NCBI GenBank assembly: GCA_963739545.1
Contig: CAVUAT010000011.1
Coordinates: 536,317 to 600,316 of the forward strand
Source: an uncultured Solirubrobacterales bacterium
GTDB taxonomy: Bacteria > Actinomycetota > Thermoleophilia > Solirubrobacterales > 70-9
Length of the DNA stretch: 64,000 nucleotides
Reading direction: 5' to 3'
The notes below the pieces were generated by a model, which saw only the letters and a list, made by a program, of their open reading frames with translations, made no database searches and was not told where the DNA came from. Of the stretch, positions 28,532 through 47,800 are shown piece after piece (the first letter of the stretch is position 1; every line of letters begins with the position of its first letter). A program made the translations under genes and the position numbers.

Positions 28532-28574
28532 TGGGCCGGGGTGGACTCGAACCACCGACCGACGGATTATGAGT
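28532..28574 (-). repeat. Direct repeat of the 3' part of tRNA-Met (att-like site, distal end of the island)
   Basis: 42 of 43 nt are identical to 41717-41759 (TGGGCCGGGGTGGACTCGAACCACCGACC[G/T]ACGGATTATGAGT). Confidence 0.8.
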
Positions 28575-29069
28575 TCTGCGCTAGGCGTGCAGCGTCAAGC
28601 CGGCAGGTGTGTATTCCGTGCCTACAGGGCCGCTCACGTGGTCTGAGTTTTCGGCAGTTCGGGATACGGTTCGGGATACGGATTTCGTCCTCCGACAACC
28701 ATCGCGTTTGCATCGAAAGCGGCAGTCCCCTAGACCGATGTCCCCCGACGCTGCTTAGCCACTGAGCGTGCTGATCAGGCACCAGCCCAGGAACTTCACG
28801 CCTGGTGGCGACCGCTACCGAGAACCCGAGTGCAGCGCAGCTTCGAAACCGCATATCCGGTCTGGTCCCTGCAAATGAAGCCCCAGAAATTGCCGGCTTC
28901 CCAGCCGCCACCTCAGAACCACTCCCGGGCCACAGTCTTGGGGCTCTTGCAGCCGATGTTCTTGGCATGGACGTTTGTAGTAACCGGCTCCTCCGCCCTT
29001 TTGGTCGCCGCAGTTCTTCCGCTTGCCCGCTGAGGGGGACGGCGCTGGCGAGCAACGCCAGACTCATGC

Positions 29070-29489
29070 TCAGCCCTCGGGAAGTTGAAAGACGGTCATC
29101 GGAAGCTCGAATCGGTGCTGCACGGCATCGGTCAAGCCACGCTCCTGCCACCCTGCTCGGTCCTCCGCTCGTAGGCCGATCAGGATGTGGTCCGGGCGAA
29201 ACGACCGAATCGCGTCCTCGAACGCAACAAGGGGGTCGTCGGCAGCGACCGTTCCCGACCCGGATCCGCCTACCTCTTCGATCTGACCGAGGACAACTTT
29301 CAGACGCTCGTCGGCCTGTTGGGTCGCTTTGTCGGTCGCTGAAGCCCACCATTCGAATCTCGCGGGCAACGTGGGTGCGATCACGTAGATCTCCTCCGCC
29401 GATGCGATGAGGGCCCGGACGCTGGGAGGAAGATCAGCTGCGTCTCCGGCCGCCTCGCCGGCGGCGATCAAGAGGCGTGTACCGGCCAT
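29070..29489 (-). CDS. Hypothetical protein, Usp-like fold suspected; paralog of 34372..34824
   Basis: 139-aa ORF that is the last gene of the sigma/anti-sigma operon. It shares PSVRA..E.YV.AP...EW...ERL...GTV..D...F..D.I.I....W.ER.L with the 34.4-kb gene. Confidence 0.5.
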   Translation of the reverse strand: MAGTRLLIAAGEAAGDAADLPPSVRALIASAEEIYVIAPTLPARFEWWASATDKATQQADERLKVVLGQIEEVGGSGSGTVAADDPLVAFEDAIRSFRPDHILIGLRAEDRAGWQERGLTDAVQHRFELPMTVFQLPEG

Positions 29490-29600
29490 GAGGTCTTACC
29501 GTACCTAGCGCGGCTCGGTCGGGGACCCAGCGCGAGGCCGATCGGCTCCGCGAGCAGCTCGCGGACGCGCTTCAGGAAGAGCGATTCGTCCGCCCAGCGG

Positions 29601-29849
29601 CTACGCCCTCTCAGCCGGGGGCCTCGTGCTGGTGACCACGTCCTTGAGGCTCTGGTAGTCCTCCGCGCAGGCAGGGCAGCCCTCCAGGTGGGCCTGCATC
29701 CCCGGGATCCTGGCCCCTGCGTCTGCGCCTGCGACCTCGAACTCCACATAGCGATCGAGCTGCTCGAAACATTGCTCGCACGTCAGCTCGGGGCTTCCGG
29801 GCCCCAGAAGGCGGGCGAGCACGTCGCTCTCATGGTCGTGGCTGGTCAT
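29601..29849 (-). CDS. Small soluble zinc-binding (ZAS, RsrA-like) anti-sigma factor
   Basis: 82 aa, starting MTSHDHESDV, with CEQC...HLEGCPAC (an HxxxCxxC motif plus upstream Cys). It has no TM segment, and its start overlaps the sigma gene stop. Confidence 0.7.
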   Translation of the reverse strand: MTSHDHESDVLARLLGPGSPELTCEQCFEQLDRYVEFEVAGADAGARIPGMQAHLEGCPACAEDYQSLKDVVTSTRPPAERA

Positions 29850-30556
29850 GGTGTTGGTTCCTCCTCTCGGGACTCGAGTTCGAAACCGGCATCCTCCAGC
29901 CCGGTGCGGAGCTTCTTGCGGGCGTCGTGAACCGTCTTGTAGAGGGCTCCGCGAGTTGTGTTCAGGCGCTCGGCCATGACGTCGATCGGGACGCCGTTGA
30001 CGGCGACCGCCAACAGCACCTCGCGCTGATGGGGGGAGAGCTCGGCCTTGATCGTCTTCTGAATCTGGGTCAGCAACGCGCGCTGTTCGGCGTCGGAAGC
30101 GGGGGAAAGCCCGGAATCGGCCATCACCGACCAATGCTCAGGCTCCATCGGCAATTCGCGGCCCTGCCACGCGCGCCGGCGCAGCTTGACCGCAGCCTCG
30201 AGCAGGGCGAACTTGTAGGCCCAGGTGGTGAAGCGGCTGTCGCCGCGGAAGTCGTCGAGCTTGGCGAGGATCGCCATCAAAGCGTCGCTGGCGGCTTGAT
30301 GGGCAAGGTCGTCGAAGTCGTCGCCGCGGAGATGGGGCATCCCAGCCCTGCGGCGATTCACCTCGAAGCGCGATGCTCGCAGCAGTAGCTCGTGAAGCCG
30401 CGCCGTCGCCTCCTCGCGCGACGGCCCCTCGCTGCTCAAATCCCTCAACCAGGCGCGCGACTCCTCGTCGAGCCCTGGAATCGACCGTGGTGGACTCGTC
30501 AAATTCATCGTCTCGATTGTCGCGCGTTCGACGCGGGTGTTCGTCGCACTCAGCAT
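29846..30556 (-). CDS. Sigma-70 family (ECF-like) RNA polymerase sigma factor
   Basis: Region 2 (DDLAHQAASDALMAILAKLDDFRGDSRFTTWAYKFA) and region 4 (LSPHQREVLLAVAVNGVPIDVMAERLNTTRGALYKTVHDARKKLR) are present. An alternative start is at 30508. Confidence 0.8.
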   Translation of the reverse strand: MLSATNTRVERATIETMNLTSPPRSIPGLDEESRAWLRDLSSEGPSREEATARLHELLLRASRFEVNRRRAGMPHLRGDDFDDLAHQAASDALMAILAKLDDFRGDSRFTTWAYKFALLEAAVKLRRRAWQGRELPMEPEHWSVMADSGLSPASDAEQRALLTQIQKTIKAELSPHQREVLLAVAVNGVPIDVMAERLNTTRGALYKTVHDARKKLRTGLEDAGFELESREEEPTP

Positions 30557-30639
30557 CCTTGAGTCTCCTCATCGAGGGCGTGTGTGCGTCCTGTTTGTGT
30601 CCCTGAGCGGGCGAGCCTTACCTGTCGCTGATCCCGCGG

Positions 30640-30657
30640 ATAGGGGAAAGGCCCCAT
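30640..30657. promoter_or_regulatory. Island box 1: ATAGGGGAAAGGCCCCAT
   Basis: Lies in the divergent gap between the sigma operon and doxX and is followed by CGAC. It is one member of a seven-copy 18-nt palindromic motif. Confidence 0.55.
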
Positions 30658-30789
30658 CGACGCGGCAACCACCCGCAGTGATGCTGGACCCGGTGTCGAT
30701 GGCGGGCCAAGTGCCCGACGTAAGAGACGACGAGCCGCCGACGCCAAGAGTCACTGCACCACTTCCAATAACCCACCAAGGAGGTACAC

Positions 30790-31269
30790 ATGTCCTCGGC
30801 CACGCTCACCGGGCGCGCGGGCACACAGGGCGGCCCGTCCAGCGTCAATGGCGCGGGCTCAACCACGGATCGCCTCAAGGCCGACCCTGCCTATCAGGCG
30901 TTCTGGATGCTGCGAATCGGGTTCGCCGCGCTGCCGATCCTGTTCGGCCTGGACAAGTTCTTTGACGTCCTGGTCAACTGGGAGATCTACCTGGCACCCT
31001 GGATCAACGACAGCATCCCCGGCACCGCCGCCGAGGCGATGTACGCCGTCGGAGTGATCGAGATCCTGGCGGGCATCGCGGTGGCGCTGAAGCCGCGCTA
31101 CGCGGCCTACGTGGTCGCCGCCTGGCTCGGCGGGATCATCGTTAGCCTGCTGACGGTCTCGGGCTACTACGACGTTGCGCTGCGGGACTTCGGTCTGCTG
31201 CTCGGCGCCCTGGCCCTGGCCCGGCTCGCCAGCAAGTACGACCCGCCGCTGTTCGGCGCGAAGGCATAA
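30790..31269 (+). CDS. DoxX-family membrane protein
   Basis: The RBS context is AAGGAGGTACACATG. Has FGLDKFFDVLVNWEIYLAPWI...GVIEILAGIAVALKPR...GYYDVALRDFGLLLGALALARLA. Confidence 0.75.
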   Translation: MSSATLTGRAGTQGGPSSVNGAGSTTDRLKADPAYQAFWMLRIGFAALPILFGLDKFFDVLVNWEIYLAPWINDSIPGTAAEAMYAVGVIEILAGIAVALKPRYAAYVVAAWLGGIIVSLLTVSGYYDVALRDFGLLLGALALARLASKYDPPLFGAKA

Positions 31270-31342
31270 CCGCTCTCCTCCCCGGCGCAGGCCGCGGCCT
31301 GCGCCGGGCGTGGCTTGCGCGGGGGATCGTGGTCCCGCTCAA

Positions 31343-31360
31343 ATGAGGAGAAAGCCCCAT
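31343..31360. promoter_or_regulatory. Island box 2: ATGAGGAGAAAGCCCCAT
   Basis: Lies between doxX and the PQ-loop gene and is followed by CGAC. Confidence 0.5.
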
Positions 31361-31581
31361 CGACAGGCGAGATGTGCGGGGCGATCATTGGGCTATGCCA
31401 ATGGCAGCCCGAGCAGGAATCATCTACCAAACCCCACGCCCGCCCCAGAGGCGGCCGTCGGAGCCGGTTGCGCGATCGATCGTCGCCCGTGATGGCGAGC
31501 GCGCGAACGCTGAGAATCGCCGGCGCCCGGCATCCGCCCGCAGCTAGGGCTCAACCGGGCCTTCGCTGCGGAAAGGCGGCA

Positions 31582-31938
31582 ATGAGCGAGCTGATCGGAC
31601 TCACAGGGGCGTCGCTGGCGGGATACGCCTACCTCCCTCAGATTTCCCATCTCGTCCGCGAGCAATGCTCGGCGGGCATCAGCAGGAGCGCGTTCACGAT
31701 CTGGCTTCTGGCCTCGGTTCTGATGACGGTCCACGCGATCCTGCTGCCCGCGGTGGTGTTCATCGCGCTCGGAGTAATCCAGATCGGGGCAATCACGACC
31801 ATCCTCGTCTACAGCGCCCGCTACCGCGGCCTTGTATGTCCCACCCACCTAAGGAGCCCGGCCCACGACTCGGTTCAGCCGGCGCTGCATACGCCACCCG
31901 TGGGTGGAGTGCCAGGGGATGGGGAAAACCCCCCATAG
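31582..31938 (+). CDS. Small PQ-loop (SemiSWEET-like) 3-TM membrane protein
   Basis: Starts MSELIGLTGASLAGYAYLPQISHLV and has three hydrophobic helices. It is the internal start of ORF 31315..31938. Confidence 0.5.
   Translation: MSELIGLTGASLAGYAYLPQISHLVREQCSAGISRSAFTIWLLASVLMTVHAILLPAVVFIALGVIQIGAITTILVYSARYRGLVCPTHLRSPAHDSVQPALHTPPVGGVPGDGENPP
31919..31936. promoter_or_regulatory. Island box 3: ATGGGGAAAACCCCCCAT
   Basis: Lies 36 nt upstream of the ctaD ATG and overlaps the end of the PQ-loop gene. Confidence 0.5.
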
Positions 31939-31971
31939 CCGTCAGGACTTTCGCGGGCGACCATTCCGTCC

Positions 31972-33994
31972 ATGCCGGATCCAGCTCGAACCGATTTGCC
32001 GGCCCTCGCGACCGCCTCTCCCCCCCAACAGACGACCCGCGTCCCTCCCTCCCCGGGGCGCGGGTCGTCGCTCTCCGCGTTTCGAGGCGCGGGCTGGCCC
32101 CGGGCGTTGCTCGGGGCGCTCCTCGGCGGGGGCCTCGGCTTCGGCCTCGTCGTCGGGCTGCGAGCGATCGCCGGCCTGGAGATCTTCCAGACCGAGCAGA
32201 CCGGCTACCCGCACCTGATCGTCCCCGCGATCACCGCCCCGCTCGGCTTCCTGCTCGGGATCGGCTGCTTCGATTACTGGCTGCGCTGGGCGCCGGGAGC
32301 CCCGACCGTCCCCGACGACCACACCGATCACGGCGCCGACTCGTGGCGGGATTACCTGCGCTTCAACACCGATCACAAGGTGATCGGGATCCAGTACATC
32401 GTCACCACCTTCTTCTTCTTCTTCATCGGCGGCCTGCTGGCGATGGTGATCCGCGCCGAGCTCGCCCAGCCCGGCACGCAGATCGTCGATCCGCAGCGTC
32501 TACAACGGGCTCTTCTCGACCCACGCGGCGATCATGATCTTCCTGTTCGTGATCCCGGTCTTCGCCGGGCATCGCCAACTACGTGCTGCCGCTGATGCTC
32601 GGGCGCCCCGGACATGGCGTTCCCGCGCCTCAACGCGCTCTGCTTCTGGCTCCTGCCGTTCGCCGGCATCCTCTTCATCGCGAGCTTCCTCGTCCCCGGC
32701 GGCGCCTTCGACGCCGGCTGGACCGGCTACGCGCCGCTATCGACCGGGGCGCCGCTCGGGCAGTCGTTCTTCAACATCGGCGTCCAGTTCGCGGGCTTCT
32801 CATCGATCCTCGCGGCGATCAACTTCCTGGTCACGATCATCACCATGCGGGCGCCGGGGATGAACTTCTGGCGGATGCCGCTGCTGGTCTGGGCGAACCT
32901 GGCGACGTCGATCCTGATCGTCGGCGCGACGCCGTTCATCGCCGGCGTGCAGCTGATGGTCCTGTTCGACCGCGCGCTCGGCACGAACTTCTTCCAGGCG
33001 GCCGCCGGCGGCGACGTCATCAGCTACCAGCACATCTTCTGGTTCTACTCGCACCCCGCCGTCTACATCATGATGCTGCCGGGGTTCGGGATCGTCTCCG
33101 AGGTGATCTCGACCAACTCCCGCAAGCCGATCTTCGGCTACCGGCTGATGGCGATCTCGCTGCTCGGCATCGTCGTCCTCTCCTTCAGCGTCTGGGCCCA
33201 CCACATGTTCGTCTCCGGCATGTTCAGCTGGCTGCGCGTGCCGATGATGCTGACCTCGGTGCTGATCGCGATTCCGACCGGGATCAAGATCTTCAGCCTG
33301 GCTCGGCGACGCTGTTCAACGGCGTGATCCACACCAAGAGCACCGGGATGCTGTTCGCGCTCGGCTTCGTCTGCAGCTTCATCCTCGGCGGGATCTCCGG
33401 CGTGATGACGGCGATGGTGCCGCTCGACATCCACGTCACCGACACCTACTTCATCGTCGCCCACATCCACTTCGTGCTGTTCGCCGGATCGGTGTTCACG
33501 ATCTTCGCCGGCATCTACCACTGGTTCCCGAAGATGACCGGGCCGGATGTACGACGAGCGGCTCGGGCAGCATGCATTCTGGCTGACGCTGGTCGGCACC
33601 TGGGGCACGTTCGTGCCGATGCACTGGATCGGGATGGAGGGGATGCCGCGCCGGGTCGCCGACTACGCGGCCGAGTTCGGCAACTGGAACCTGTTCATCT
33701 CGGTGTTCGGCGTTCATGCTCGGCGCCGCCCAGCTGATCTTCCTCTACAACATGGTCGTCTCGCTGGAGGTGGGGGCCGAAGGCGCCGGCCGAACCCCTG
33801 GCGGTGCGAAGACGATCGAATGGCTCGTCTCCTCGCCGCCGCCGCGGTTCAACTTCGACGCGATCCCCCGCGTCGTCGGCGGCCCGTACGAGTTCGGCGT
33901 CCCCGGCGCCCGCCACGCGCTGCTGGCCGGCGACGAGGGCTACAAGCCTGCGCCGAGGGCTCGACCGGTCGGCGCCGGCAAAGAGCCGACCTGA
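31972..33994 (+). pseudogene. ctaD: Cytochrome c oxidase subunit I, split over at least six frame changes, with an extra two-TM N-terminal region of about 110 aa
   Basis: Consecutive CtaD segments are found in ORFs 31972..32595, 32534.., 32583.., 32614..33327, 32583..33737 (part), 33547.. and 33716..33994. Motifs are intact ([36 protein letters not shown]). No ctaC or ctaE is adjacent. Confidence 0.8.
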
Positions 33995-34016
33995 GCGCTC
34001 GCGTGCCGTTCAACGA

Positions 34017-34034
34017 ATGGGGCAAACGCCCCAT
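34017..34034. promoter_or_regulatory. Island box 4: ATGGGGCAAACGCCCCAT (perfect 7-4-7 palindrome)
   Basis: Lies 70 nt upstream of small ORF 34104 and is followed by CGAC. Confidence 0.55.
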
Positions 34035-34103
34035 CGACCCCGCCTGTTCCCGCGGCGACCATGGTCATGACGAACAAATCCACGAAGCGAAAGGGAGCCC
34101 AAG

Positions 34104-34262
34104 ATGGATGGCAACAGAGAGCATGAGAAGCGAGCACCGCAGCCCGGCATGACCCCCAAGTACCCCGAGACGCCAGCGGAGTTCGACGAGTCGGTCAAGA
34201 AGGGTGCGAAGGAGTCGGCTCGTCGAGGAGCCGGGCAGCGGCGAGGGCTCGGGCGCAGCTAG
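34104..34262 (+). CDS. Small hydrophilic protein (52 aa), not in the ORF track
   Basis: The RBS GAAAGGGAG lies 8 nt before the ATG. Sequence: MDGNREHEKRAPQPGMTPKYPETPAEFDESVKKGAKESARRGAGQRRGLGRS. Box 4 is upstream. Confidence 0.35.
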   Translation: MDGNREHEKRAPQPGMTPKYPETPAEFDESVKKGAKESARRGAGQRRGLGRS

Positions 34263-34371
34263 GGCTGACCCGAGTCACTTGATGAGGAACCCTTCGGTGC
34301 ACCCGGGTCGGACGCGAACCCTTCGGTGCACCGAGGGGAACGGGGCAAACGAGAAGGAGGCCGCGCAGCGG

Positions 34372-34824
34372 TCAGACTCGGACCGATGCGGCGCCGTCGG
34401 CGTCGACGAGCAGCTCCGTGAGCGGTTGAGAGTGGTGGGCGCGGATCCGCTCGGCGAGGTGTCGCTCGCGCCAATGGCGGTCGTAGTCGGTGTGGACGGC
34501 GATGACGATCTCGTCGGCTGGAAACTCAGCGAGCGCGTCGCCGATCGCTGTCACGACGGAAGCATCGTCGCCCACGGTTCCCTCGGCCTCGATCTCTCGG
34601 TCGTATAGCTGCTGAAGCGTGGAGGCCAGTCGCTCCTCTGCGTCTGCGATGGCGTCAGGATCGTCCTCGTTCGTGACCCACTCCACACGGGTGATCAGGA
34701 GTGGGGCTAGCACGTAGACCTCGCTGGCTTCGCGTTCGGCGACCGCCCGGACCGAGGGGCGGACCACTCTGGTGTCGCTGATCGTCGGGTCGACGACGAG
34801 GAGGATGCGCTTCTGCTTGCTCAT
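34372..34824 (-). CDS. Hypothetical protein, Usp-like fold suspected; paralog of 29070..29489
   Basis: Starts MSKQKRILLVVDPT... An alternative start is at 34833. See the paralog alignment under 29070..29489. Confidence 0.55.
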   Translation of the reverse strand: MSKQKRILLVVDPTISDTRVVRPSVRAVAEREASEVYVLAPLLITRVEWVTNEDDPDAIADAEERLASTLQQLYDREIEAEGTVGDDASVVTAIGDALAEFPADEIVIAVHTDYDRHWRERHLAERIRAHHSQPLTELLVDADGAASVRV

Positions 34825-34859
34825 GACGCCCATCTTCGACGATTGATGCCCGAGTTGGA

Positions 34860-34877
34860 ATGGGCGTTTACCCCCAT
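34860..34877. promoter_or_regulatory. Island box 5: ATGGGCGTTTACCCCCAT (reverse orientation)
   Basis: Lies in the 88-nt divergent gap between 34824(-) and 34913(+). Its reverse complement is ATGGGGGTAAACGCCCAT. Confidence 0.5.
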
Positions 34878-34912
34878 GGAGCCGCAGCACCGTCGCTGGG
34901 AGCATTGGCGCC

Positions 34913-35890
34913 ATGACGACCTATCCGAGCGACGATCGCCGCCGAGACACGCGATCCCCCTCCGTTCACGAACCGGTACTGGTCGGCGTGGAGGGCTCGA
35001 AGCGCTCGGCGGACGCTCTCGCGCTGGCCGATCTGCTGAGTCCCCTACTCGGACGCTCGGTCCTGATCGCGTTCGTGCATCCGTACGGGAACGTGTCGGG
35101 CCTACTCGGGGAAGGCGAATACCAGCGACTCGTACGGAAGGTGGCCGAAGAGACGTTCCGCGACGTGCGGGAACACCTCCCCTCGGTCAGCGAGCGGGAG
35201 ATGGACCTCGTGTCCGATGGCTCCGCCGCGGCGGGTCTCCACGGCCTGGCGGAGCGAAAGCGTGCGTCGCTGCTCGTGGTCGGCTCTTCACACCGATCAA
35301 GGTTGGGGAGGGTACTTCCCGGCGGCACCGGCGAGCGACTGCTGACGGGCGCCCCGGCGCCGGTGGCAGTCGCGCCGGCCGGCTATGCAAGCGGGAGGCC
35401 TCACATCCGGACGGTGGGCTGCGCCTTCGATGGTTCCCCGGAGTCCCGCCACGCCCTCGAGTGGGCGGCCGCCATCGCGCGAGCGGCCTCGGCCAGCCTT
35501 CGGGTGATCGGCGTCCATGAGCGACTGCCCTCCGCGAGCGTCTCGATCGAGGGAGGGCTTCCGATCCGCTCCCTCAACGACCTACTTCACGCCGAGCAGA
35601 GCAAAGAGCTGGAGGAGGCAGCGGCGGGGTACGGCACGGAACTGGATGTCAGCGCGGAGCTGCTCGAAGGAAACCCAGCCAACGCCCTGAAGACGCAATC
35701 GCGGGATCTGGATCTGCTGGTGCTCGGCTCGCGCGGCTACGGCCCGCTGCGCGCGGTCCTGGCCGGGAGCGTTTCGCTGGCGCTGATGCGCTCGGCGGAG
35801 GCACCCATCGTCATCACCCCTAGAGGGACCGAGATCATCAAGTGGTGGACCGAGCCGCGATCCACCGCTGTCGGGAAGGTCGGCTCATGA
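34913..35890 (+). CDS. Universal stress protein, tandem Usp domains
   Basis: 325 aa with two repeats carrying VVGSSHRSRLGRVLPGGT and VLGSRGYGPLRAVLAGSV. Confidence 0.85.
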   Translation: MTTYPSDDRRRDTRSPSVHEPVLVGVEGSKRSADALALADLLSPLLGRSVLIAFVHPYGNVSGLLGEGEYQRLVRKVAEETFRDVREHLPSVSEREMDLVSDGSAAAGLHGLAERKRASLLVVGSSHRSRLGRVLPGGTGERLLTGAPAPVAVAPAGYASGRPHIRTVGCAFDGSPESRHALEWAAAIARAASASLRVIGVHERLPSASVSIEGGLPIRSLNDLLHAEQSKELEEAAAGYGTELDVSAELLEGNPANALKTQSRDLDLLVLGSRGYGPLRAVLAGSVSLALMRSAEAPIVITPRGTEIIKWWTEPRSTAVGKVGS

Positions 35891-36243
35891 CGACCCTCCA
35901 GGTCCGAGCCAAGCGCATCTACGAGGAGCCGCAACGTGGTGATGGCTACCGGATCCTGATCGATCACATGTGGCCACGCGGCGTCTCGCGCGAGCGCGCC
36001 CACCTCGATGAATGGGCACGCGAGCTGGCGCCAAGCAACGAGCTCCGGAAGTGGTTCGACCATGTCCCCGCGCGCTTCACGCAGTTTCGAACCCGCTACC
36101 GCCACGAGCTGGCCGCTCATCCCGAACGTCTCGACGAGCTTCGCCGTCGCGCAGCGAGGCGTCAGCTGACGGTCCTGTATGCAGCCCGCGACCAAGTGCA
36201 CAACAACGCCGTGGTGCTCGTCGAGCTGCTGAACGATGCCTGA
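35887..36243 (+). CDS. DUF488-family protein
   Basis: An ATGA overlap joins it to the usp stop. Has RIYEEPQRGDGYRILIDHMWPRGVSRERAHLDEWARELAPSNELRKWF. Confidence 0.75.
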   Translation: MTTLQVRAKRIYEEPQRGDGYRILIDHMWPRGVSRERAHLDEWARELAPSNELRKWFDHVPARFTQFRTRYRHELAAHPERLDELRRRAARRQLTVLYAARDQVHNNAVVLVELLNDA

Positions 36244-36255
36244 GCCCCTCTGTGA

Positions 36256-36915
36256 CTAGGGCTGGACCAGCCCCCGCTTGATCGCGTATCGCGTCAGATC
36301 GACGCGGTTTCGCATCCCGAGCTTCTCGAGGATGTTGTCGCGGTGGCGGTCGACGGTGTTCTTAGCGATCACGAGCGTCTCGCCGACCTCCTCGCTGGTC
36401 AGACCCTCAGCGATCAGCTTGATCACCTCCAGCTCGCGCGGGGTCAGCGGGTCACCTGTGATCTCCTCCCCCCGCTGGGCACGCTCGAGGTAATCCTTGA
36501 CGAGCGCTGAGGCGGCCGCCGGGTAGATGAACGGCTCGCCTCGCAGCGCCCCGCGGCAGGCTTCGATCAGATCGCGGTTGGCCTCGGATTTGAGAACGTA
36601 GCCCGAGGCGCCGGCCTTCAGCGCCTCGAAGAAATACTGCTCGTTGTCGTGAACCGACAGCATGAGAGTGTGCAGCTCGGGTCGGCGGCTGTGAAGCTCA
36701 GCGGCAACCTGGAGTCCGGTCAGCCGCGGCATCGAGACGTCGAGCACCGCCAGGTCGAGCTCCTCGCTGATCGCGATCTTCAACGCCTCCTCCCCGTCAC
36801 TTGCCTCGACCACCACCTCCAAATCGGGCTGAGATTCGAGAACGAGCTTCAACCCGCTCCGGACGAGCTCGTGGTCGTCGGCGAGGAGTATCCGTGCGCG
36901 CAATGGAATCGTCAT
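36256..36915 (-). CDS. NarL/LuxR-family response regulator
   Basis: The receiver domain is ILLADDHELVRSGL...DLAVLDVSMP and the C-terminal LuxR HTH is LTPRELEVIKLIAEGLTSEEVGETLVIAKNTVDRHRDNILEKLG. Confidence 0.9.
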   Translation of the reverse strand: MTIPLRARILLADDHELVRSGLKLVLESQPDLEVVVEASDGEEALKIAISEELDLAVLDVSMPRLTGLQVAAELHSRRPELHTLMLSVHDNEQYFFEALKAGASGYVLKSEANRDLIEACRGALRGEPFIYPAAASALVKDYLERAQRGEEITGDPLTPRELEVIKLIAEGLTSEEVGETLVIAKNTVDRHRDNILEKLGMRNRVDLTRYAIKRGLVQP

Positions 36916-37910
36916 CAGGTGCGCACCAGGGGAAAACTGAGCATCACAGTTGTTCCGTTTCCGGATTGGGAGTCGATCGCCAAAGTCCCGCCCGCGAGCA
37001 GCGCTCGCTCGCGCATGCCCTCGATCCCGATCGTTTCGCCCTCGGGGCGATCGGGAATCCCACGCCCGTCATCGCTGACGGTGAGGTTGATCGCGCCGTT
37101 CGAGCCCTCCAGCTCGATCACGGCATGCGACGCCTGAGCATGCCGGAGAACGTTCGTCAACGCCTCCTGGGCCACGCGATAGAGGACCAACTCCTGATCC
37201 GAGGAGAGATCGGGCAGGTCATCGGAGAGACGACGCTCGATTCGCAGCCCGCCCTGGCGAGCTGCCCGGGAGCTGAGCGCGATCAGAGCGTTGATCAACC
37301 CGAGATCGTCGAGCGCCTCGGGGCGCAGCTCGCGGGCGATTCGTCTGATCTCATCGAGGGCGGAGTGGAGCTCGCCGGCGAGCACGGCCATTCGCTTCCG
37401 CTCGCCCTCGGGACCCTGCGAAGCGGCCCGTTCGATCTCGAGAGCCACCGCGGTCAGGGTCTGACCGGCCTCATCGTGAAGGGCCCGAGCGATTCGCAGG
37501 CGCTCCCGCTCTTGGGCGAGGAGCGCGGCGCGCGAGCCCGCACGACGTTCATCGGCCAAGCGGCCGAGCATCGCATTGAACGCGTTCGTGAATGCGGCCA
37601 GCTCGACGCTCTCGCTGGAGCCACCGATCCGTGCCCGCTCGGGGTGGCGCAAGTCGACCTCCCCCATCTCGGCCGCGAAGGTCCGAAGCGGCGCGAAAGC
37701 GCGACGGACGCGAATCGCGTTGACCGCCAGCATCGCCACAAACGCCAAGACCAAGATCAGGAGCTCGCCGGCGCGGATCGGGTGGCTGACGGTAACGGGT
37801 GTCACCACCAGGAGCACGAAGATCAAAGTGAGCAAGGCACTGCTTGAAAGGAGTGCCCGCCGCGCGATCGATCTCGATTCCCGGGAGGAGGGTTCGGCGC
37901 TGGAAGTCAT
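36915..37910 (-). CDS. Sensor histidine kinase (HisKA_3 type) with two TM helices and almost no extracytoplasmic loop
   Basis: The H-box is RIARALHDEAGQTL and the ATPase motifs are EALTNVLRHA and DDGRGI...GIEGMRERA. Its stop overlaps the RR start. Confidence 0.85.
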   Translation of the reverse strand: MTSSAEPSSRESRSIARRALLSSSALLTLIFVLLVVTPVTVSHPIRAGELLILVLAFVAMLAVNAIRVRRAFAPLRTFAAEMGEVDLRHPERARIGGSSESVELAAFTNAFNAMLGRLADERRAGSRAALLAQERERLRIARALHDEAGQTLTAVALEIERAASQGPEGERKRMAVLAGELHSALDEIRRIARELRPEALDDLGLINALIALSSRAARQGGLRIERRLSDDLPDLSSDQELVLYRVAQEALTNVLRHAQASHAVIELEGSNGAINLTVSDDGRGIPDRPEGETIGIEGMRERALLAGGTLAIDSQSGNGTTVMLSFPLVRT

Positions 37911-37988
37911 CGCCTAACGAAAGCACGCTCCTCCTCGAATAGCGAGAGGGTCGCTGTGCGGCCCGCCGCAGCGCCCGTCCCTGCCCGA

Positions 37989-38006
37989 ATGAGGATTTCC
38001 ACCCAT
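37989..38006. promoter_or_regulatory. Island box 6: ATGAGGATTTCCACCCAT (reverse orientation)
   Basis: Lies in the divergent gap between the HK-RR operon (start 37910) and the 38041 gene. Its reverse complement is 16/18 identical to box 7. Confidence 0.5.
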
Positions 38007-38040
38007 GGACCGGCGACCCAGCCGTTGCGAGTCTTGCGCC

Positions 38041-38354
38041 ATGGTCAAGATCGCGATCCTCTGCCACCCGTGCACGCCGGCCCCCACCGGCGACCTCGAG
38101 GATTGGCTTGAAGGTCAGCTCGACCAACTCCGGAAGGCCGCGCCCGTGGGCATCATCCGTCTGTCCGGCTGGCCCAGGGCCTCCCCGACACCGAGATCGA
38201 GGTCGGGTGGCTTGTCGAGCTGGAACTGCCCGAGGAATCCGTCCAGCTGGGACGCGATCGCCTTGTCAACGCCTTGGCCGATCTCGTCACGGATATGCGG
38301 TTCCTCGGGCTGCAGCCGAGCGTCCTGACCCCGAACGAGTGCGGGAATCCGTAG
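38041..38354 (+). pseudogene. Small hypothetical protein with one frameshift (apparent 1-nt loss in a C run near 38165)
   Basis: MVKIAILCHPCTPAPTGDLEDWLEGQLDQLRKAAPVGIIRLS continues in the -1 frame as RLAQGLPDTEIEVGWLVELELPEESVQLGRDRLVNALADLVTDMRFLGLQPSV... GC3 is coding-like in both parts. Confidence 0.45.
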
Positions 38355-38365
38355 GCGCTCGTGGG

Positions 38366-38383
38366 ATGGGTGGAAAGCCCCAT
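38366..38383. promoter_or_regulatory. Island box 7: ATGGGTGGAAAGCCCCAT
   Basis: Lies about 260 nt upstream of the reductase gene and is followed by CGAC. Confidence 0.5.
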
Positions 38384-38644
38384 CGACACGGCGACCGCCT
38401 GAGTCGATCATTCGGGTCATGGCAACCATCGGCCCAGCAGGAGTTCTGATCTTCACTCGTCGCGCCGAACTCGCCCGGACGCCTCGGCGAACCGCTGTGG
38501 GGCGACGGCCAACCCGCGAGACCAAGGCCGTGATGAGGGAGTTCAGGCGTCTGCATCGCACCGAAGGTAAGAACGCCCCCTTCCGGGACGCATACAGGGG
38601 GCCAAAGCAGTCAAACGGCCGGATGGCCCCCGAGGAAGGAAGAG

Positions 38645-39943
38645 ATGGCCGTCGCATCGCTTGAGACGTTCGTGATCGTCGGCGCGGGGCTGGCCGGCGC
38701 CAAAGCGGCAGAGACGCTGCGTGAAGAGGGCTTCGACGGTCGCCTCGTCCTGGTGGGCGATGAGCCCGAGCGCCCCTACGAGCGCCCGCCCCTGTCCAAG
38801 GAATACCTGCGGGGGGAGGCCGAGGATGCCCCCTACGTGCATGACCGGACCTTCTATGACGACCGTTCGATCGAGCTCTGGTGCTCGACGCGCGTCACCG
38901 GCCTCGACGCCGGCTTTCGGGAGCTCCTATTGGAAGGCGATCGCCGCCTCGGCTACGACCGCCTCCTGCTCTCGACCGGCGCGGTTCCGCGCCGGCTCGA
39001 CGTCCAGGGCGCCGACCTCGACGGCATCCACTACCTGCGAACGCTGGCCGACTCCGCGCGGATCCGTGAGCGGATCGAATCGAGCCAGCGACTGGTCGTA
39101 GTCGGCTCGGGCTGGATCGGCGCGGAGATCGCCGCCTCGGCTCGCCAGAAAGGATGCGAGGTGACCATGCTCGAGATGGCCTCACTACCCCTCGAGCGTG
39201 TCTTGGGGCCCGAGCTCGGGCAGATCTACCTAGACCTGCACCGCGATCACGGCGTCGAGTTCCTGCCCGAGACGACGGTCGAGCGCTTCGAGGGCCAGGG
39301 CTCTGTGGAGCGGGTGATCACCCGCGACGGCGCCTCGATCGAGACTGGGTTCGTCGTCGTCGGCATTGGCGTCGCCCCCCGCACCGGGCTGCTTGAAAGC
39401 GCCGGGCTTCGGATCGACAACGGCATCGTCGTCGACGAGCATCTCCAGAGCAGCATCCCGGGCGTGTACGCCGCGGGCGACGTCGCCAACGTTCGCCATC
39501 CCTTCTACCGACGCCACCTCCGCGTCGAGCACTGGGACACCGCGCTCCATCAGGGCCCCGTCGCCGCCAGGAACATGCTCGGCGCAAGCGAGCCCTACGA
39601 GCGGATCCCCTATTTCTTCTCCGACCAGTACGAGACCGGAATGGAGTACAGCGGCCACGCAATCGAATGGGACGAGGTCGTCTTCCGCGGCGACATCGGA
39701 GCCCGCGAGTTCATCGCCTTCTGGCTCGAGGACCAGCGCCTCGTCGCGGGAATGAATATGAACGTCTGGGACGTAAGCGACCCGATCCGGGAGCTGATCG
39801 CCTCCCGCCGGCGACTCGATCCGCGTGAGCTCGCCGACCCCGACACTCCGCTGGCCGAACTGAGCGAGCCCGGCGACGCTGACGACGACGAGGACGAGCG
39901 CGAAGCCCTCGGCGCGTGGGCATCCGAGGGTGGATCATGGTGA
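38645..39943 (+). CDS. FAD-dependent pyridine-nucleotide-disulfide-type oxidoreductase (ferredoxin/rubredoxin reductase-like) with an acidic C-terminal tail
   Basis: Has FVIVGAGLAGAKAAETLR, VVVGSGWIGAEIA and AAGDVA motifs. The tail is EPGDADDDEDEREAL. Confidence 0.85.
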   Translation: MAVASLETFVIVGAGLAGAKAAETLREEGFDGRLVLVGDEPERPYERPPLSKEYLRGEAEDAPYVHDRTFYDDRSIELWCSTRVTGLDAGFRELLLEGDRRLGYDRLLLSTGAVPRRLDVQGADLDGIHYLRTLADSARIRERIESSQRLVVVGSGWIGAEIAASARQKGCEVTMLEMASLPLERVLGPELGQIYLDLHRDHGVEFLPETTVERFEGQGSVERVITRDGASIETGFVVVGIGVAPRTGLLESAGLRIDNGIVVDEHLQSSIPGVYAAGDVANVRHPFYRRHLRVEHWDTALHQGPVAARNMLGASEPYERIPYFFSDQYETGMEYSGHAIEWDEVVFRGDIGAREFIAFWLEDQRLVAGMNMNVWDVSDPIRELIASRRRLDPRELADPDTPLAELSEPGDADDDEDEREALGAWASEGGSW

Positions 39944-41055
39944 ACCGCCTGCAGCACCTCCAGGACGCCGGGGTGTCGATCTGGCTGGACGACCTCTCCC
40001 GAGAGCTGCTCGACAGCGGCGAGTTCATGCGCTATGTGCGAGAGCTCGCGGTGACCGGAGCGACCTCGAACCCGACGATCTTCGCCAAGGCGATCACGCG
40101 CTCGGACCTGTATGACCCCCAGATCCGCCGCGCGCTTGATCTGGGCCTGAGCGATCCGCGGGAGATCTTCTTCGAGCTCGCTCTGGAGGACGTCCGCCGC
40201 GGCGCCGACAACCTGCGCGCGGTCTACGAGCTGAGCGACGGCCGCGATGGCTTCGTCTCCTTCGAGTGCACCCCCGACCTCGCGGACGACGCGAATGCGA
40301 CCGTGAAACAGGCGCTGGACGTCTGCAATCGAGTGAACGTACCCAACCTCCTGATCAAGGTCGCCGCGACCGACGCCGGGATCACCGCGATTGAGGAGCT
40401 GACGGCGCGCGGCGTCAGCGTCAACGTCACTCTGCTCTTCTCGGTGCGCCGCTACGAGCAGGCGATCGACGCATATTGGAGCGGCCTCGAGCGCCGGCTG
40501 GGAGTCGGCAAGCCGGTCGTGGAGATCTCCTCGGTGGCGTCCTTCTTCGTCTCGCGGGTCGACACGATCGTCGACCCGTGGCTCGCGCCCGACTCGCCAC
40601 TGCGCGGGCGAATCGCGATCGCAAACGCCCAGATCGCCTACGCGCGCTACATCCGGTCCCTCGAGAGCGCGAGATGGAAGGACCTCGCCGTTCGCGGTGC
40701 CACACCGCAGCGCCCGCTGTGGGCGAGCACCGGCACGAAAGACCCCGACTACTCCGACGTCCGCTACGTCCAAGAGCTGATCGCCCCGGGTGTGATTAGC
40801 ACGGTCCCGATCAAGACGCTTCAAGCCTTTGCCGACCATGGTGACGTCGGCGCCTCACTCGGCCGCGACGCGATCCGCGCCCAGCGGCTACTCGGCGAGC
40901 TGGCCGAGGCCGATATCGACTTCGCTGCGATCACGGACGAGCTCGAGCGCCGAGGCGTCGACTCCTTCCGCGATTCCTATCGCGAGCTGTTGGCCTGTAT
41001 CGAGGCGAAGACCTCCGAGGTGAGCGCCGGCGCTCTTGAGGCTGTCCATGCCTAG
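39937..41055 (+). CDS. tal: Transaldolase (long actinobacterial type)
   Basis: Starts MVNRLQHLQDAGVSIWLDDLSRELL...VTGATSNPTIFAKAI, with NLLIKVAAT. Its start overlaps the reductase stop (ATGGTGA). Confidence 0.9.
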   Translation: MVNRLQHLQDAGVSIWLDDLSRELLDSGEFMRYVRELAVTGATSNPTIFAKAITRSDLYDPQIRRALDLGLSDPREIFFELALEDVRRGADNLRAVYELSDGRDGFVSFECTPDLADDANATVKQALDVCNRVNVPNLLIKVAATDAGITAIEELTARGVSVNVTLLFSVRRYEQAIDAYWSGLERRLGVGKPVVEISSVASFFVSRVDTIVDPWLAPDSPLRGRIAIANAQIAYARYIRSLESARWKDLAVRGATPQRPLWASTGTKDPDYSDVRYVQELIAPGVISTVPIKTLQAFADHGDVGASLGRDAIRAQRLLGELAEADIDFAAITDELERRGVDSFRDSYRELLACIEAKTSEVSAGALEAVHA

Positions 41056-41105
41056 CGGAATGACCATTTCGCCCATGGTCGTAGGCCGTCTTTCCGCGGG
41101 AGCCT

Positions 41106-41771
41106 GTGGGGGATGGCCGATCCCGGCCATCCAGAAAGGAGCCACCATGTCTTCGGAAGTCGCGATACCAACAACCGCAACGCGCCCACCCGCGCCCTGG
41201 GCACCTCTCGGGCTTGCGCCTTCGCGTTCGCGGGCGCGCCCACGAGCTCGACAGAGCGCTCGCCGGCAAGGTCCGATCGGTGCCGATGGTCGATCAGGCC
41301 GCCCGGGCCCTCGACCAGCTGAGCCGCAGGCAGCGGTGGACCGGCGAGAACGATCTCGTATTCGTGAACGCGGTCGGCGGCGTGGTCGAGGACTCCCGCC
41401 CTGCGGCGGCGCTTCTACGCCGCCCTGAAGGCAGCGGAGGTGCCCCGCCTGCGCTTCCACGACCCCGGCACACGTTCGGGACGCTCGCCGTGCAGGCCTT
41501 CGCGCTTTCCGATGTGAAGGCCTACATGGGCCACGCGGACATTCAGACGACCATGCGCTACGTCCACCACGTGCCGCAGCACGACGCCGCCGAGCAGCTG
41601 ACCAAGCTCTTGCAGGAGCGCACCGAGATCGACGTTGGGTGCGCGCCGGGTGCGCGCGACTTAGACAACGAGAGGGGAGCGGAGGCAGAAAGCCCGCCTG
41701 AGCGGGCAATTTCTGATGGGCCGGGGTGGACTCGAACCACCGACCTACGGATTATGAGTCCGCTGCTCTGA
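41106..41771 (+). pseudogene. Tyrosine-recombinase (phage-type integrase) remnant, C-terminal catalytic part only, frameshifted
   Basis: Reads ...RSVPMVDQAARALDQLSRRQRWTGENDLVFVN... then, in another frame, LRRRFYAALKAAEVPRLRFHD, then RHTFGTLAVQAFALSDVKAYMGHADIQTTMRYVHH. The N-terminal half is absent because tal ends at 41055. It abuts the 3' end of tRNA-Met. Confidence 0.7.
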
Positions 41772-41790
41772 CCAACTGAGCTACCGGCCC
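41717..41790 (-). tRNA. tRNA-Met (anticodon CAT; elongator-type or possibly Ile2)
   Basis: The minus strand folds as a cloverleaf: GGGCCGG TA GCTC AGTTGGTC AGAGC A GCGGA CTCATAA TCCGT AGGTC GGTGG TTCGAGT CCACC CCGGCCC A. No CCA is encoded. Confidence 0.85.
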
Positions 41791-42649: not shown

Positions 42650-43024
42650 TCAGTCGTCGCCTGAGAGCACGGCGAGCCCCTCGCCCACTGAGGCGGGCTC
42701 AGGCTCCCCGGCGGCCGCTGCGCGAGCGCCCTCGCGGAGGCCGCTGACGCCCGCGGTCAGCTTCGACGCGAGCTCGGCGTCGATCGTCCCCGGGGCGGTG
42801 CGCTGGACGAGCGCGATCTCGAGCTGTTCGCTCAGCTCCGCGAGGCGCTGTTGGCCGACGACCATCGCGGCGCCCCTCAGCCCGTGCGCATCGATGCGCA
42901 GGCGCTCGACCTCATCCGATGCGGGCTCGGTCGCCGCCGCAAGCCGCTCGATTCCCTCGAGCATCTCGGGGGCGCGCCGCTCGGCCTCGGTGGCGAGCAT
43001 CTGCAGCAGCTCGTTATCGGCCAT
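42650..43024 (-). CDS. Stand-alone Hpt (histidine phosphotransfer) domain protein
   Basis: 124 aa with the phospho-acceptor context RIDAHGLRGAAMVVG. Confidence 0.7.
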   Translation of the reverse strand: MADNELLQMLATEAERRAPEMLEGIERLAAATEPASDEVERLRIDAHGLRGAAMVVGQQRLAELSEQLEIALVQRTAPGTIDAELASKLTAGVSGLREGARAAAAGEPEPASVGEGLAVLSGDD

Positions 43025-46523: not shown

Positions 46524-47765
46524 ATGACGCGCCCATCCAAGCTGCGGCTGGTCGTCGCGGCCTTCGGCGACCCCGGGCACGCCTTCCCCGCCATCGCGCT
46601 GGCGCGCGAGCTGCACGCCCGTGGGCACGAGGTCGTGGTCGAGACGTGGGAGCATTGGCGCGAGCCGGTCGAGGCGGAGGGCCTGACGTTTCGCGGGGCT
46701 CAGGAGTACACGGTTTTTCCTCCACCCGGGCCCGACACGCCCGACGGCAAGACCGCCGCCGACGCAGCGCTGGCGCTCGCCGCGCTGATGGACGAGTGGG
46801 AGCCCGACCTGGTGGTCAGCGACATTCTCACGCTCGCGCCGACCCTCGCGGCCGAGGTGGCGGGGGTCCCACACGCCACGCTGGTCCCCCACGTCTATCC
46901 GGTGCAGGAGTCCGGGCAGCCGATGTACTCGCTCGGCTTTCGGCCCTCCCGCACCCCGCTGGGACGCGCCGGGTGGAAGGCGACGATGCCGATCCTCGAG
47001 ACCGGGCTGCGCCGCGGGCGCGAGGAGATGAACGACACGCGGGCGCGGCTGGGGCTGGCGCCGCTGGACCGCTTCCACGGCGGGATCAGCGAGCTGCTCG
47101 CGCTCGTCGCCACCTTCCCCCAGCTCGAGTATCCGCGGCCCTGGCCCGAGCACGTGAAGGTCACCGGGCCGCTCTTCTTCGAGGTCCCGGCCGACGAGAT
47201 CGAGATCCCGCCCGGCGACGAGCCCCTGGTGGTCGTCGCCCCCAGCACGTCGCAGGACCCCGAGCGCGAGTTGGTGCGGGCGGCGCTCGAGGGGCTCGCG
47301 GACGAGCCGGTGCGGGTGGTGGCGACGTTCAACAACCACCGCCCGGACGACCCGATCGACGTTCCCGACAACGCCGTGCTGACCCCCTGGCTCTCCTACT
47401 CGCAGGTGATGTCGCAGGCCGACCTGGTGATCTGCCACGGCGGGCACGGGACGCTGGTTCGCTCCTTCTCGGAGGGAGTGCCGGTCCTCGCCTGTCCAAC
47501 GGTCGGCGACATGGGCGAGAACGGCGCGCGGGTGGGCTGGTCGGGCGCGGGCCTTGCCCTGCCGAAGCGGTTGCTCTCACCGCGCGGAGTGCGGCTCGCC
47601 TCCGCGCGAATCCTCAGCGACGACGGCTACCGCGCCAAGGCGGAGGAGATGCAGCGCTGGCACGCAGAGAACGACGGGGCGGCGAACGCCGCGGACGAGG
47701 TGGAGAAGGTCATCGCGTCGAAGGAGCTCCGGGGGTGGGACTCGAACCCACAACCTCTCGATTAA
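46524..47765 (+). CDS. GT1-family (MGT/UDP-glycosyltransferase-like) glycosyltransferase
   Basis: Has LRLVVAAFGDPGHAFPAIALARELHARGHEV and CHGGHGTLVRSFSEGVPVLACP motifs. The last roughly 13 codons run into tRNA-Asn on the opposite strand, so the true C-terminus is uncertain. Confidence 0.8.
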   Translation: MTRPSKLRLVVAAFGDPGHAFPAIALARELHARGHEVVVETWEHWREPVEAEGLTFRGAQEYTVFPPPGPDTPDGKTAADAALALAALMDEWEPDLVVSDILTLAPTLAAEVAGVPHATLVPHVYPVQESGQPMYSLGFRPSRTPLGRAGWKATMPILETGLRRGREEMNDTRARLGLAPLDRFHGGISELLALVATFPQLEYPRPWPEHVKVTGPLFFEVPADEIEIPPGDEPLVVVAPSTSQDPERELVRAALEGLADEPVRVVATFNNHRPDDPIDVPDNAVLTPWLSYSQVMSQADLVICHGGHGTLVRSFSEGVPVLACPTVGDMGENGARVGWSGAGLALPKRLLSPRGVRLASARILSDDGYRAKAEEMQRWHAENDGAANAADEVEKVIASKELRGWDSNPQPLD

Positions 47766-47800
47766 CAGTCGAGCGCATCTACCAATTGAGCTACCCCGGA
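47727..47800 (-). tRNA. tRNA-Asn (anticodon GTT) with one extra T in the D-stem
   Basis: The minus strand reads TCCGGGG TA GCTC AATTGGTA GA[T]GC G CTCGA CTGTTAA TCGAG AGGTT GTGGG TTCGAGT CCCAC CCCCGGA G. It is canonical if the bracketed T is removed. Confidence 0.8.

Follow-up and report, generated by a model that had tools for sequence, protein, structure and literature searches.

A 64-kb stretch of DNA from an uncultured Solirubrobacterales bacterium (referred to below as the window) was found to contain seven copies of an 18-nt palindromic box that, with a probability of roughly three in four, act as operators at which a NarL-family response regulator encoded in their midst activates transcription. 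The regulator gene (36256..36915, minus strand) and the histidine kinase gene that precedes it (36915..37910, minus strand) lie together with all seven boxes on an island bounded by a tRNA-Met gene and a repeat of its 3′ end. The sites have a fixed architecture, they are conserved beside orthologous two-component genes, and the borders of the island can be read from the sequence. The circuit is of a known kind, the palindromic-operator regulon of a NarL-family pair on a genomic island, and constitutes a new example of it.

Direct reading of the window placed the boxes at coordinates 30640, 31343, 31919, 34017, 34860, 37989 and 38366, with the tetranucleotide CGAC directly 3′ of four of them, as had been reported in an earlier note on this DNA. 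A search with the consensus ATGGGGNAAANGCCCCAT, allowing up to three mismatches, matched six of the seven boxes and nothing else in the window; in shuffled sequence the same search was expected to yield 0.22 matches, and none of 100 shuffles reached seven. On a matrix derived from the seven boxes, their own scores were 23.1–28.4 bits (15.8–26.4 bits when each was left out in turn), while the best non-box site in the window scored 7.8 bits. The earlier statement that there is no copy beyond 30.6–38.4 kb therefore holds within the window, except for a decayed 17-nt look-alike at 41060–41076. The repeat is real and confined to 30.6–38.4 kb of the window. Each window promoter has one box, and no second site reaching 8 bits was found elsewhere in the window. 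The boxes had been described as lying in non-coding gaps; this does not apply to that at 31919–31936, which overlaps the last codons and the stop codon (31936–31938) of a PQ-loop gene. The box at 34017–34034 is a perfect 7-4-7 palindrome, but direct reading of all seven sites showed the inner positions to be mostly non-complementary, with no compensatory changes. The box thus behaves as would be expected of a binding site for a dimeric transcription factor, an assignment supported over a hairpin or a chance repeat.

Read on the plus strand, all seven boxes are followed, after exactly 22 nt, by a hexamer of the form GAnnnT (in box order, GATGCT, GATCAT, GACCAT, GACCAT, GAGCAT, GAGTCT and GATCAT). 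By simple arithmetic from the base composition (68.5% GC), nAnnnT is expected by chance at ∼2.5% of positions. The last T of each box forms, with the next five bases, another hexamer (TCGACG, TCGACA, TAGCCG, TCGACC, TGGAGC, TGGACC and TCGACA) that resembles TTGACA, overlaps the box by one base, and is separated from the downstream hexamer by a 17-nt spacer; the recurring CGAC can therefore be regarded as a -35 element, and the GAnnnT hexamer as the -10. In six of the seven promoters an ATG occurs 4–7 nt beyond the -10 hexamer, and in four or five of them it is the start of the downstream gene (31972, 34913, 38041, 31395 and 38419, the last belonging to an open reading frame (ORF) of uncertain status). 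This suggests that the corresponding mRNAs are leaderless. If, as predicted, transcription starts ∼7 nt after GAnCAT, the centre of the box would lie at -41.5 to -44.5. The first base of the -10 hexamer is never the consensus T (G in the seven window promoters, C or G in Streptomyces promoters), which fits promoters that need an activator.

The boxes at 34860 and 37989 had been given a reverse orientation. This distinction was not borne out, as both carry the same plus-strand promoter layout as the other five. In the case of box 34860, the minus strand shows the layout too: the reverse complement of the box is followed, after 22 nt, by GAAGAT and, 7 nt further on, by the ATG at 34824 of a gene coding for 150 amino acids (aa). 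The centre of the box is 44.5 nt from each of the two divergent start codons, and it appears to form a bidirectional promoter placed exactly symmetrically. The proposal that a box marks every promoter gap of the island was too strong, since the sigma factor operon and, in the window, the kinase operon have no box in the activating register on their own strand. LuxR/TraR-type and NarL-type class II promoters carry an 18–20-bp palindrome at the -35 region, centred ∼42–44 bp upstream of the transcription start, and have a weak core. The window promoters resemble them in the placement of the box against or over the -35, in a seemingly weak core promoter, and in a predicted binder of the dimeric GerE-type helix-turn-helix class. 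They differ in that their starts are predicted only and are mostly leaderless, and in that one box is symmetric between divergent start codons.

Pfam searches identified a receiver (REC) domain and a GerE/LuxR helix-turn-helix in the regulator, the presumed box binder. The kinase has two N-terminal hydrophobic segments ∼10 residues apart, followed by HisKA_3 and HATPase_c domains; in agreement with the earlier description, no GAF domain was detected in it by Pfam, nor any PAS or haem domain. Over its whole length, the regulator matched NarL (5e-33), VraR (1e-31) and DevR (6e-31) to a similar degree, as a generic NarL-family protein would. When the DNA-binding domain was used alone, DevR was not among the 16 PDB sequences retrieved with E ≤ 1e-6. 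Homologues of the regulator were found in more than 120 close clusters (81–97% identity) in Solirubrobacterales metagenome bins, and others, 59–64% identical over the full length, in Streptomyces, with the same range of identity in Micromonospora, Nocardioides and others. The kinase is 48% identical to that of a GarS-type locus of Streptomyces canus.

Next to these genes, the outer part of the box proved to be conserved. When 82 loci were searched for the core ATGGG-N8-CCCAT with at most one mismatch and the matches were counted in bins of 500 nt, 100 of them fell into the bin immediately 5′ of the kinase gene and 0–10 into each of the others, values above 8 being restricted to a smaller cluster 0.5–2.5 kb downstream of the regulator gene. 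The core was present at -1450 to -950 in 57 of 80 loci, and within the 3.6 kb that precede the regulator gene in 66 of 84. The conserved position spans from Solirubrobacterales to Streptomyces, including loci in which the regulator is ∼61% identical; Streptomyces retains CGAC as well as the distance of 22 nt to the -10 (CAGGCT), and the recognition helix of the regulator, TVxRHRxN, is conserved throughout the loci. Apart from the kinase and regulator genes, no gene is present in every box-bearing locus. Since the core lies upstream of the orthologous operon in most of the 80 loci, and given the synteny with GarS/GarR described below, it is very probable that the NarL-family regulator of the island binds the box and acts as an activator; it is by far the best candidate for the binding, as the earlier note had proposed. 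Among 69 promoters of these loci, symmetry was limited to the outer ATGGG/CCCAT, the inner pairs being complementary in 9–38% of the sites. Symmetric outer positions combined with non-complementary inner ones are the signature of a protein dimer and not of a hairpin. An ATG or GTG was found 6–7 nt past the -10 in 45 of the 69 promoters.

In Thermoleophilia, boxes with the same layout were found upstream of the kinase operon and of genes coding for DoxX-like, COX1, GreA-like, Usp and reductase proteins, for the family of the window gene at 38041–38354, and for a family of 160–175 aa with an ELDxALAxGA motif. In one locus (L009), the box with its flanks, GTCAGATGGGTAACAGTCCCCAT, and ∼30 nt of gene start occurs twice, at 10704 and 17253, 6.5 kb apart, which suggests a recent duplication of a box-controlled gene. 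In another (L084, 10511–14354), whose regulator is 95% identical to that of the window, the cluster adjoins genes for a hemerythrin, an ArsR-type regulator, a ferredoxin and a cytochrome bd oxidase; no box was detected in L084 upstream of the hemerythrin, ArsR-type, ferredoxin or cytochrome bd genes.

The regulator appears to belong to the Streptomyces GarR/SCO5785 type rather than to the DosR type, its closest studied relatives being GarS/GarR (SCO6163/SCO6162) and SCO5784/5785. The window and GarS/GarR systems share the kinase-then-regulator gene order and a NarL/LuxR-type regulator with a receiver domain. The kinases are alike as well, with two membrane helices ∼9–10 residues apart and a HisKA_3-type core; GarS was described as having two membrane helices joined by a 9-residue loop (PMC11043171). 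Streptomyces loci L038-L083 have a pair of boxes ∼75 nt apart, located ∼1.1–1.3 kb 5′ of the regulator gene and arranged as back-to-back promoters: the GarS/GarR-type operon is faced by one, and two DksA/TraR zinc-finger genes by the other. As in the window, ATGGG-N8-CCCAT, CGAC and the 22-nt spacing are found upstream of the operon. DksA/TraR-like genes are divergent in 39 Streptomyces loci, and SecDF lies downstream in 31; this matches the SCO6160–SCO6164 layout reported previously, with two divergent DksA/TraR zinc-finger genes and SecDF downstream (PMC11043171). On the basis of synteny, the S. coelicolor proteins are probable orthologues. In 32 of 34 two-box Streptomyces loci the distal box, when read in reverse, has a CAGGCT/CAGGGT-type -10 after 22 nt, facing the DksA-like genes, which are therefore predicted to be co-targets. 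The Streptomyces arrangement differs from that in the window: each of its two divergent promoters has a single box, neither type of promoter is leaderless, and the DksA-like genes are all that could be detected of a local regulon. In the window, by comparison, there are seven boxes and other cargo, on a tRNA island. DksA/TraR in Streptomyces, and the box-controlled GreA-like proteins in Thermoleophilia, belong to families that bind the secondary channel of RNA polymerase.

We infer from these data that the regulator binds the boxes and that it activates instead of repressing; the positions of the transcription starts and the kind of signal are likewise inferred. In the mechanism proposed, the kinase, with its two membrane helices and almost no external loop, would phosphorylate the regulator, a dimer of which would bind ATGGG-N8-CCCAT, with one ATGGG for each half-site. 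The centre of the box would lie ∼44 bp upstream of the transcription start, abutting the -35 hexamer, and the bound dimer would assist a housekeeping-type RNA polymerase at promoters whose GAnCAT -10 lacks the first T. Most transcripts would start at or beside the start codon and would thus be leaderless. A DoxX-like membrane protein, a PQ-loop protein, an extra COX1, Usp-type and DUF488 proteins, a conserved hypothetical protein, and a ferredoxin-reductase-like protein with a transaldolase would be co-induced. Judging from the architecture of the kinase and from the cargo, the signal might be a membrane or respiratory cue, although this is a guess.

Several observations weigh against the boxes being the operators of a self-contained, locally activated circuit. 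The box scan covered 64 kb out of a 2.38-Mb contig, so the term self-contained applies to the window only. Frame breaks of the homopolymer type occur in the assembly (in the COX1 gene, ctaD, and in 38041–38354), and single bases in the G/C runs of the boxes may therefore be wrong. Autoregulation, proposed in the earlier note, is well supported for the family but uncertain for the window copy: the single box in the gap 5′ of the kinase gene, that at 37989, points to the divergent gene; a second, kinase-facing box, such as close relatives have, was sought in the window but not found; and on the kinase side of the gap the only -10-like hexamer (CGCTAT) is 44 nt away. Among the relatives, 18 of 84 loci lacked a box in the 3.6 kb that precede the regulator gene. 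When metagenomes were scanned with a 19-base promoter pattern for boxes far from two-component genes, 11 hits were obtained, of which two adjoin a kinase or regulator gene, the rest being too short or containing a different conserved palindrome, ATGGGGACTCCTCCCCAT, next to genes with no relation to the system; a few of the matches lay on contigs of 8–14 kb without two-component genes. The ATGGGGACTCCTCCCCAT palindrome has the same CGAC and GAGCAT layout in loci L088-L090, where it is located between a short-chain dehydrogenase gene and a divergent gene, and no kinase or regulator homologue was found in their 8–9 kb. The ATGGGGACTCCTCCCCAT sites could belong to a remote member of the regulon or to another factor. 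In addition, the published work on GarR and its 78% identical paralogue SCO5785 comprises phenotypes and in-silico 30-nt motifs only (PMC11043171, PMC3276577). Finally, the -35-like hexamers are fair ones (TCGACn or TGGACn), at the optimal spacing of 17 nt and overlapping the box by one base.

This last feature would also suit a repressor, that is, the same regulator on the same boxes, with the bound dimer hindering polymerase at the -35 until a signal arrives. Such a role would agree with the genetic behaviour of GarR/GarS as a negative regulator of antibiotic production (PMC11043171), an effect that may be indirect. However, the box lies upstream of the -35 and not over the -10 or the start, and the first base of the -10 is never T in the window or in Streptomyces, as befits dependence on an activator. 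LuxR/TraR-type activators likewise use a site centred near -44. A centre near -44 is also the activating position of DevR (-42.5; PMC3177182), and repression is considered unlikely. That the boxes belong to a factor other than the local regulator, either the extracytoplasmic function (ECF) sigma factor of the island, with box plus CGAC as its promoter, or a regulator encoded elsewhere, seems very improbable. The ECF sigma gene does lie inside the island, 84 nt from box 1; sigma homologues were found within 10 kb of the two-component genes in eight relatives (with a box nearby in two), and in Streptomyces the GGAA that precedes the box and the CGAC that follows it are loosely reminiscent of ECF -35 and -10 elements. 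The palindrome, however, is symmetric and works in two directions at box 34860, no box faces the sigma operon, the GGAA is not conserved in the window, and box-bearing loci have nothing but the kinase and regulator genes in common. Further, the gene lists of L001, L002 and L003 contain no called sigma gene up to 10 kb from the pair, and none was seen nearby in those of four Streptomyces-type loci (the remaining loci were not checked), yet the boxes are kept in all of them. An ECF sigma promoter was consequently rejected, on the grounds of symmetry, the two-way box, and the persistence of boxes in L001-L003 with no called sigma gene. The idea that the repeat is a structural or selfish element with no regulatory protein (a hairpin terminator, an element resembling repetitive extragenic palindromes or miniature inverted-repeat transposable elements, or an RNA motif) hardly deserves credence. 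Box 34017, being a perfect 7-4-7 palindrome, could fold, and the copies are clustered, but the inner stem is mostly non-complementary and shows no compensatory changes, no T-run is found downstream of the window boxes, and -10-like hexamers and start codons follow at a fixed distance. The conservation is also one of position, upstream of orthologous operons in different classes, and does not resemble that of a dispersed repeat. An Rfam search of the region matched the tRNA alone; on this and the non-complementary inner positions, a hairpin or RNA motif was discarded.

The earlier note had likened the system to the DosR/DevR regulon. It is quite improbable that this is a true DosR/DevR-OsdR orthologous dormancy regulon, responsive to hypoxia or nitric oxide, although the likenesses are several. 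DevR and OsdR are also NarL-family regulators with palindromic operators of ∼18–20 bp; the GGG-N8-CCC spacing is common to the DevR box (PMC3177182) and the OsdR box, AGGGCCGATCGGCCCT (PMC5069765), and the promoter-proximal DevR site is near -42.5 (window, -44.5). Usp genes are among the targets in each case, and many targets are clustered around the regulator gene (PMC3177182, PMC5069765); respiratory genes are also found among the window targets, and hemerythrin, ferredoxin and cytochrome bd genes adjoin the cluster in the 95% identical relative. The comparison of the boxes thus stood with respect to geometry and position, but it failed for half-site and box number. The window half-site is ATGGG, with the inner four positions unconserved, not GGGAC; that of DevR is (C/G)GGGAC and that of OsdR AGGGCC. 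Moreover, the DevR half-site has been defined as G4G5G6A7C8T9, with at least two helically phased boxes in tandem as its hallmark, e.g. at -42.5 and -63.5 (PMC3177182), whereas the window boxes are single. Unlike DevS, the window kinase has no tandem GAF or haem sensor. Over its whole length, the regulator matches NarL and VraR as well as it matches DevR, and its DNA-binding domain fails to retrieve DevR at 1e-6. The kinase-then-regulator order contrasts with osdR-osdK, and OsdK resembles DevS and DosT (PMC5069765). The Streptomyces relatives, in turn, are found in a GarS/GarR-type synteny and not in that of osdKR. Membership of the window system in the DosR/DevR-OsdR group was rejected on kinase domains, DNA-binding domain, half-site, single boxes and gene order. 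OsdKR was likewise dismissed as the Streptomyces counterpart, since the gene order, the likeness of OsdK and AGGGCCGATCGGCCCT all differ and the loci show the SCO6160–6164 layout. The presence of GGG-N8-CCC palindromes beside Usp genes is thus insufficient for the DosR label.

Regarding the borders of the island, the 3′ part of the tRNA-Met (CAT) gene (41717..41790, minus strand), at ∼41716–41760, constitutes the right attachment site, and a left attachment-site repeat at 28531..28575 (plus strand) has 43 of 45 bases in common with it. The island so delimited (28531–41716, 13.2 kb) encloses the seven boxes, the two-component genes and the sigma operon; as far as borders are concerned, its earlier description as an island was upheld. 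The GC content is 64–68% at 22–42 kb, compared with 69–72% in the flanks. A C-terminal fragment of a tyrosine integrase (41271..41675, plus strand; PF00589, E = 5e-9), with the catalytic RHT...HxxxxTxxxY residues but without the N-terminal half, lies next to the tRNA gene. In relatives, a tRNA-Pro repeat (48/48 bases) encloses all six boxes of L001, and tRNA-Val repeats (∼27 nt) enclose all three boxes of L005, with no integrase seen in either; a 45-nt tRNA fragment is repeated around the cluster of L027, and integrases homologous to the window fragment adjoin tRNA-Gly, near the two-component pair, in L029 and L030. The cluster would seem to behave as a small integrative element carrying its own regulatory circuit. 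The window island looks decayed: besides the truncated integrase, it contains the remnant of a GreA-like gene and a truncated gene of the ELDxALAxGA family behind a degenerate box. The latter is the 17-mer ATGACCATTTCGCCCAT mentioned above, which falls below the matrix threshold but has a GAGCCT 40 nt from its start (41060..41104, plus strand, in all) and precedes the frameshifted ELDxALAxGA-family gene (from 41148), a member of a family that is box-controlled in relatives.

Islands that are integrated at tRNA genes and have their own two-component regulator are known, e.g. Salmonella pathogenicity island 2 (SPI-2) with SsrA/SsrB. In both cases acquired DNA lies beside a tRNA gene, and a kinase-regulator pair controls (in the window, putatively) genes of the same island. 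The Thermoleophilia elements are much smaller (6–13 kb), contain no virulence functions, and have a truncated integrase or none; in addition, related uncultured Thermoleophilia carry this cluster at more than one tRNA (Met, Pro, Val). A tentative extension, which we regard as possible but doubtful, is that tRNA-targeting elements of 6–13 kb move a complete circuit among Thermoleophilia, consisting of kinase, regulator, three to eight operator-bearing and mostly leaderless promoters, and swappable cargo, and that the ancestral core of the regulon consists of secondary-channel proteins (GreA-like/DksA-TraR-like). On this view, a signal from the membrane or from respiration would lead the system to reprogramme transcription itself.

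The analysis provides a candidate operator, ATGGG-N8-CCCAT abutting the -35, that can be tested for a widespread family of actinobacterial two-component systems. Antibiotic production is affected by the Streptomyces members, GarS/GarR and SCO5784/5785, for which no binding site is known. Direct regulation by GarR is predicted for the divergent DksA/TraR-like genes sco6164/6165, contrary to the 2024 report in which sco6164 was judged unrelated (PMC11043171). The window would also offer a case, from an uncultured lineage of soil bacteria, of a regulon that travels as a unit on an island integrated at a tRNA gene, and a compact natural set of predicted leaderless, activator-type promoters, including one perfectly symmetric divergent pair.

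Most of the earlier gene calls were borne out by Pfam, and the promoters can be assigned to genes as follows, all on the plus strand unless indicated. P1 (30640..30685) comprises the box at 30640–30657, the -35-like TCGACG at 30657–30662 and the -10 GATGCT at 30680–30685. It would serve a gene with a weak Pfam match to DoxX (30790–31269), which has a leader of ∼100 nt and an AAGGAGG ribosome-binding site; orthologous DoxX-like genes have a box upstream in four of five relatives. P2 (31343..31388; box 31343–31360, -35 TCGACA, -10 GATCAT at 31383–31388) is followed by an ATG at 31395, the start of a leaderless ORF (31395–31547) that, when aligned with the intact gene of L001, proved to be a 36-residue N-terminal remnant of a GreA-like gene. 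Apart from this remnant, no GreA-like, DksA-like or hemerythrin gene was found in the window. The PQ-loop gene (31582–31938; Pfam) comes next, and its end overlaps P3 (31919..31964; box 31919–31936, -10 GACCAT at 31959–31964), whose ATG at 31972 is the start of the gene for cytochrome oxidase subunit I (COX1, ctaD; 31972 to ∼33994; Pfam). COX1 genes with an upstream box are also present in relatives L006, L008 and L084. The window COX1 gene extends over at least four frames, the breaks occurring at short G or C runs, and a similar break is found near 38160 in 38041–38354; these could be long-read homopolymer errors or real pseudogenes. The COX1 product is extended at its N-terminus by ∼100 residues, which include two additional hydrophobic segments. 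It contains a YSHPAV motif (within 33040–33075), which we take to mark A2-type haem-copper oxygen reductases. No subunit II or III gene adjoins it in the window.

P4 (34017..34062; box 34017–34034, -35 TCGACC, -10 GACCAT at 34057–34062) has an ATG at 34067 that opens 19 codons; the ORF of 52 aa located downstream (34104–34262) is of uncertain coding status, with no Pfam match and no homologue among the fetched loci. A 17-nt direct repeat, GAACCCTTCGGTGCACC, is present at 34287–34303 and 34317–34333, 30 nt apart, in the gap that separates this ORF from the 150-aa gene, which converges on it with its 3′ end; the repeat may be a terminator region. The bidirectional P5 (34832..34905, both strands; box 34860–34877) has a plus-side -10, GAGCAT, at 34900–34905, and a minus-side one, GAAGAT, at 34837–34832. 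On the plus side it would drive a tandem Usp gene (34913–35890; ATG at 34913) and the DUF488 gene behind it (35887–36243), both identified by Pfam, and on the minus side the 150-aa gene (34372–34824, minus strand; ATG at 34824). The same divergent pair is present in the relative L085.

P6 (37989..38034; box 37989–38006, -35 TGGACC, -10 GAGTCT at 38029–38034) has its ATG at 38041 and would serve a conserved hypothetical gene of ∼104 aa (38041–38354) with one frameshift near 38160. The ORF after the box probably starts at 38041, not 38005, since homologues align from residue 12–13. In six of the analysed sequences, including the window, a member of this family lies divergently to the kinase gene, and most of these members are leaderless. 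P7 (38366..38411; box 38366–38383, -35 TCGACA, -10 GATCAT at 38406–38411; ATG at 38419) would serve the genes for a ferredoxin-reductase-like protein (38645–39943) and a transaldolase (39916–41055), both detected by Pfam. A stretch of ∼230 nt with no homologue separates P7 from the reductase gene; in L005 the same box is ∼30 nt from the start of the reductase gene. The sigma operon lies on the minus strand, at the other side of box 1. It begins with the gene for the ECF-type sigma factor (29846–30556; Pfam), which is followed by an ORF of 82 aa and by a 139-aa paralogue of the 150-aa gene.

The 3′ end of tRNA-Met recurs once more, in a more diverged form, at 23902–23946, suggesting that 23902–28531 is an older island in tandem with the first. 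Its cargo includes three SnoaL-like genes (25127–25537, 25541–25942 and 27705–28091) and a cupin gene (26876–27523). Another integrase-like stretch (57884–58195, minus strand) is 32% identical to the fragment adjoining tRNA-Met. Other features of the window are a tRNA-Asn (47726–47800), a gene for an Hpt-domain protein (42650–43024) and that of the DnaG primase (47891–49666).

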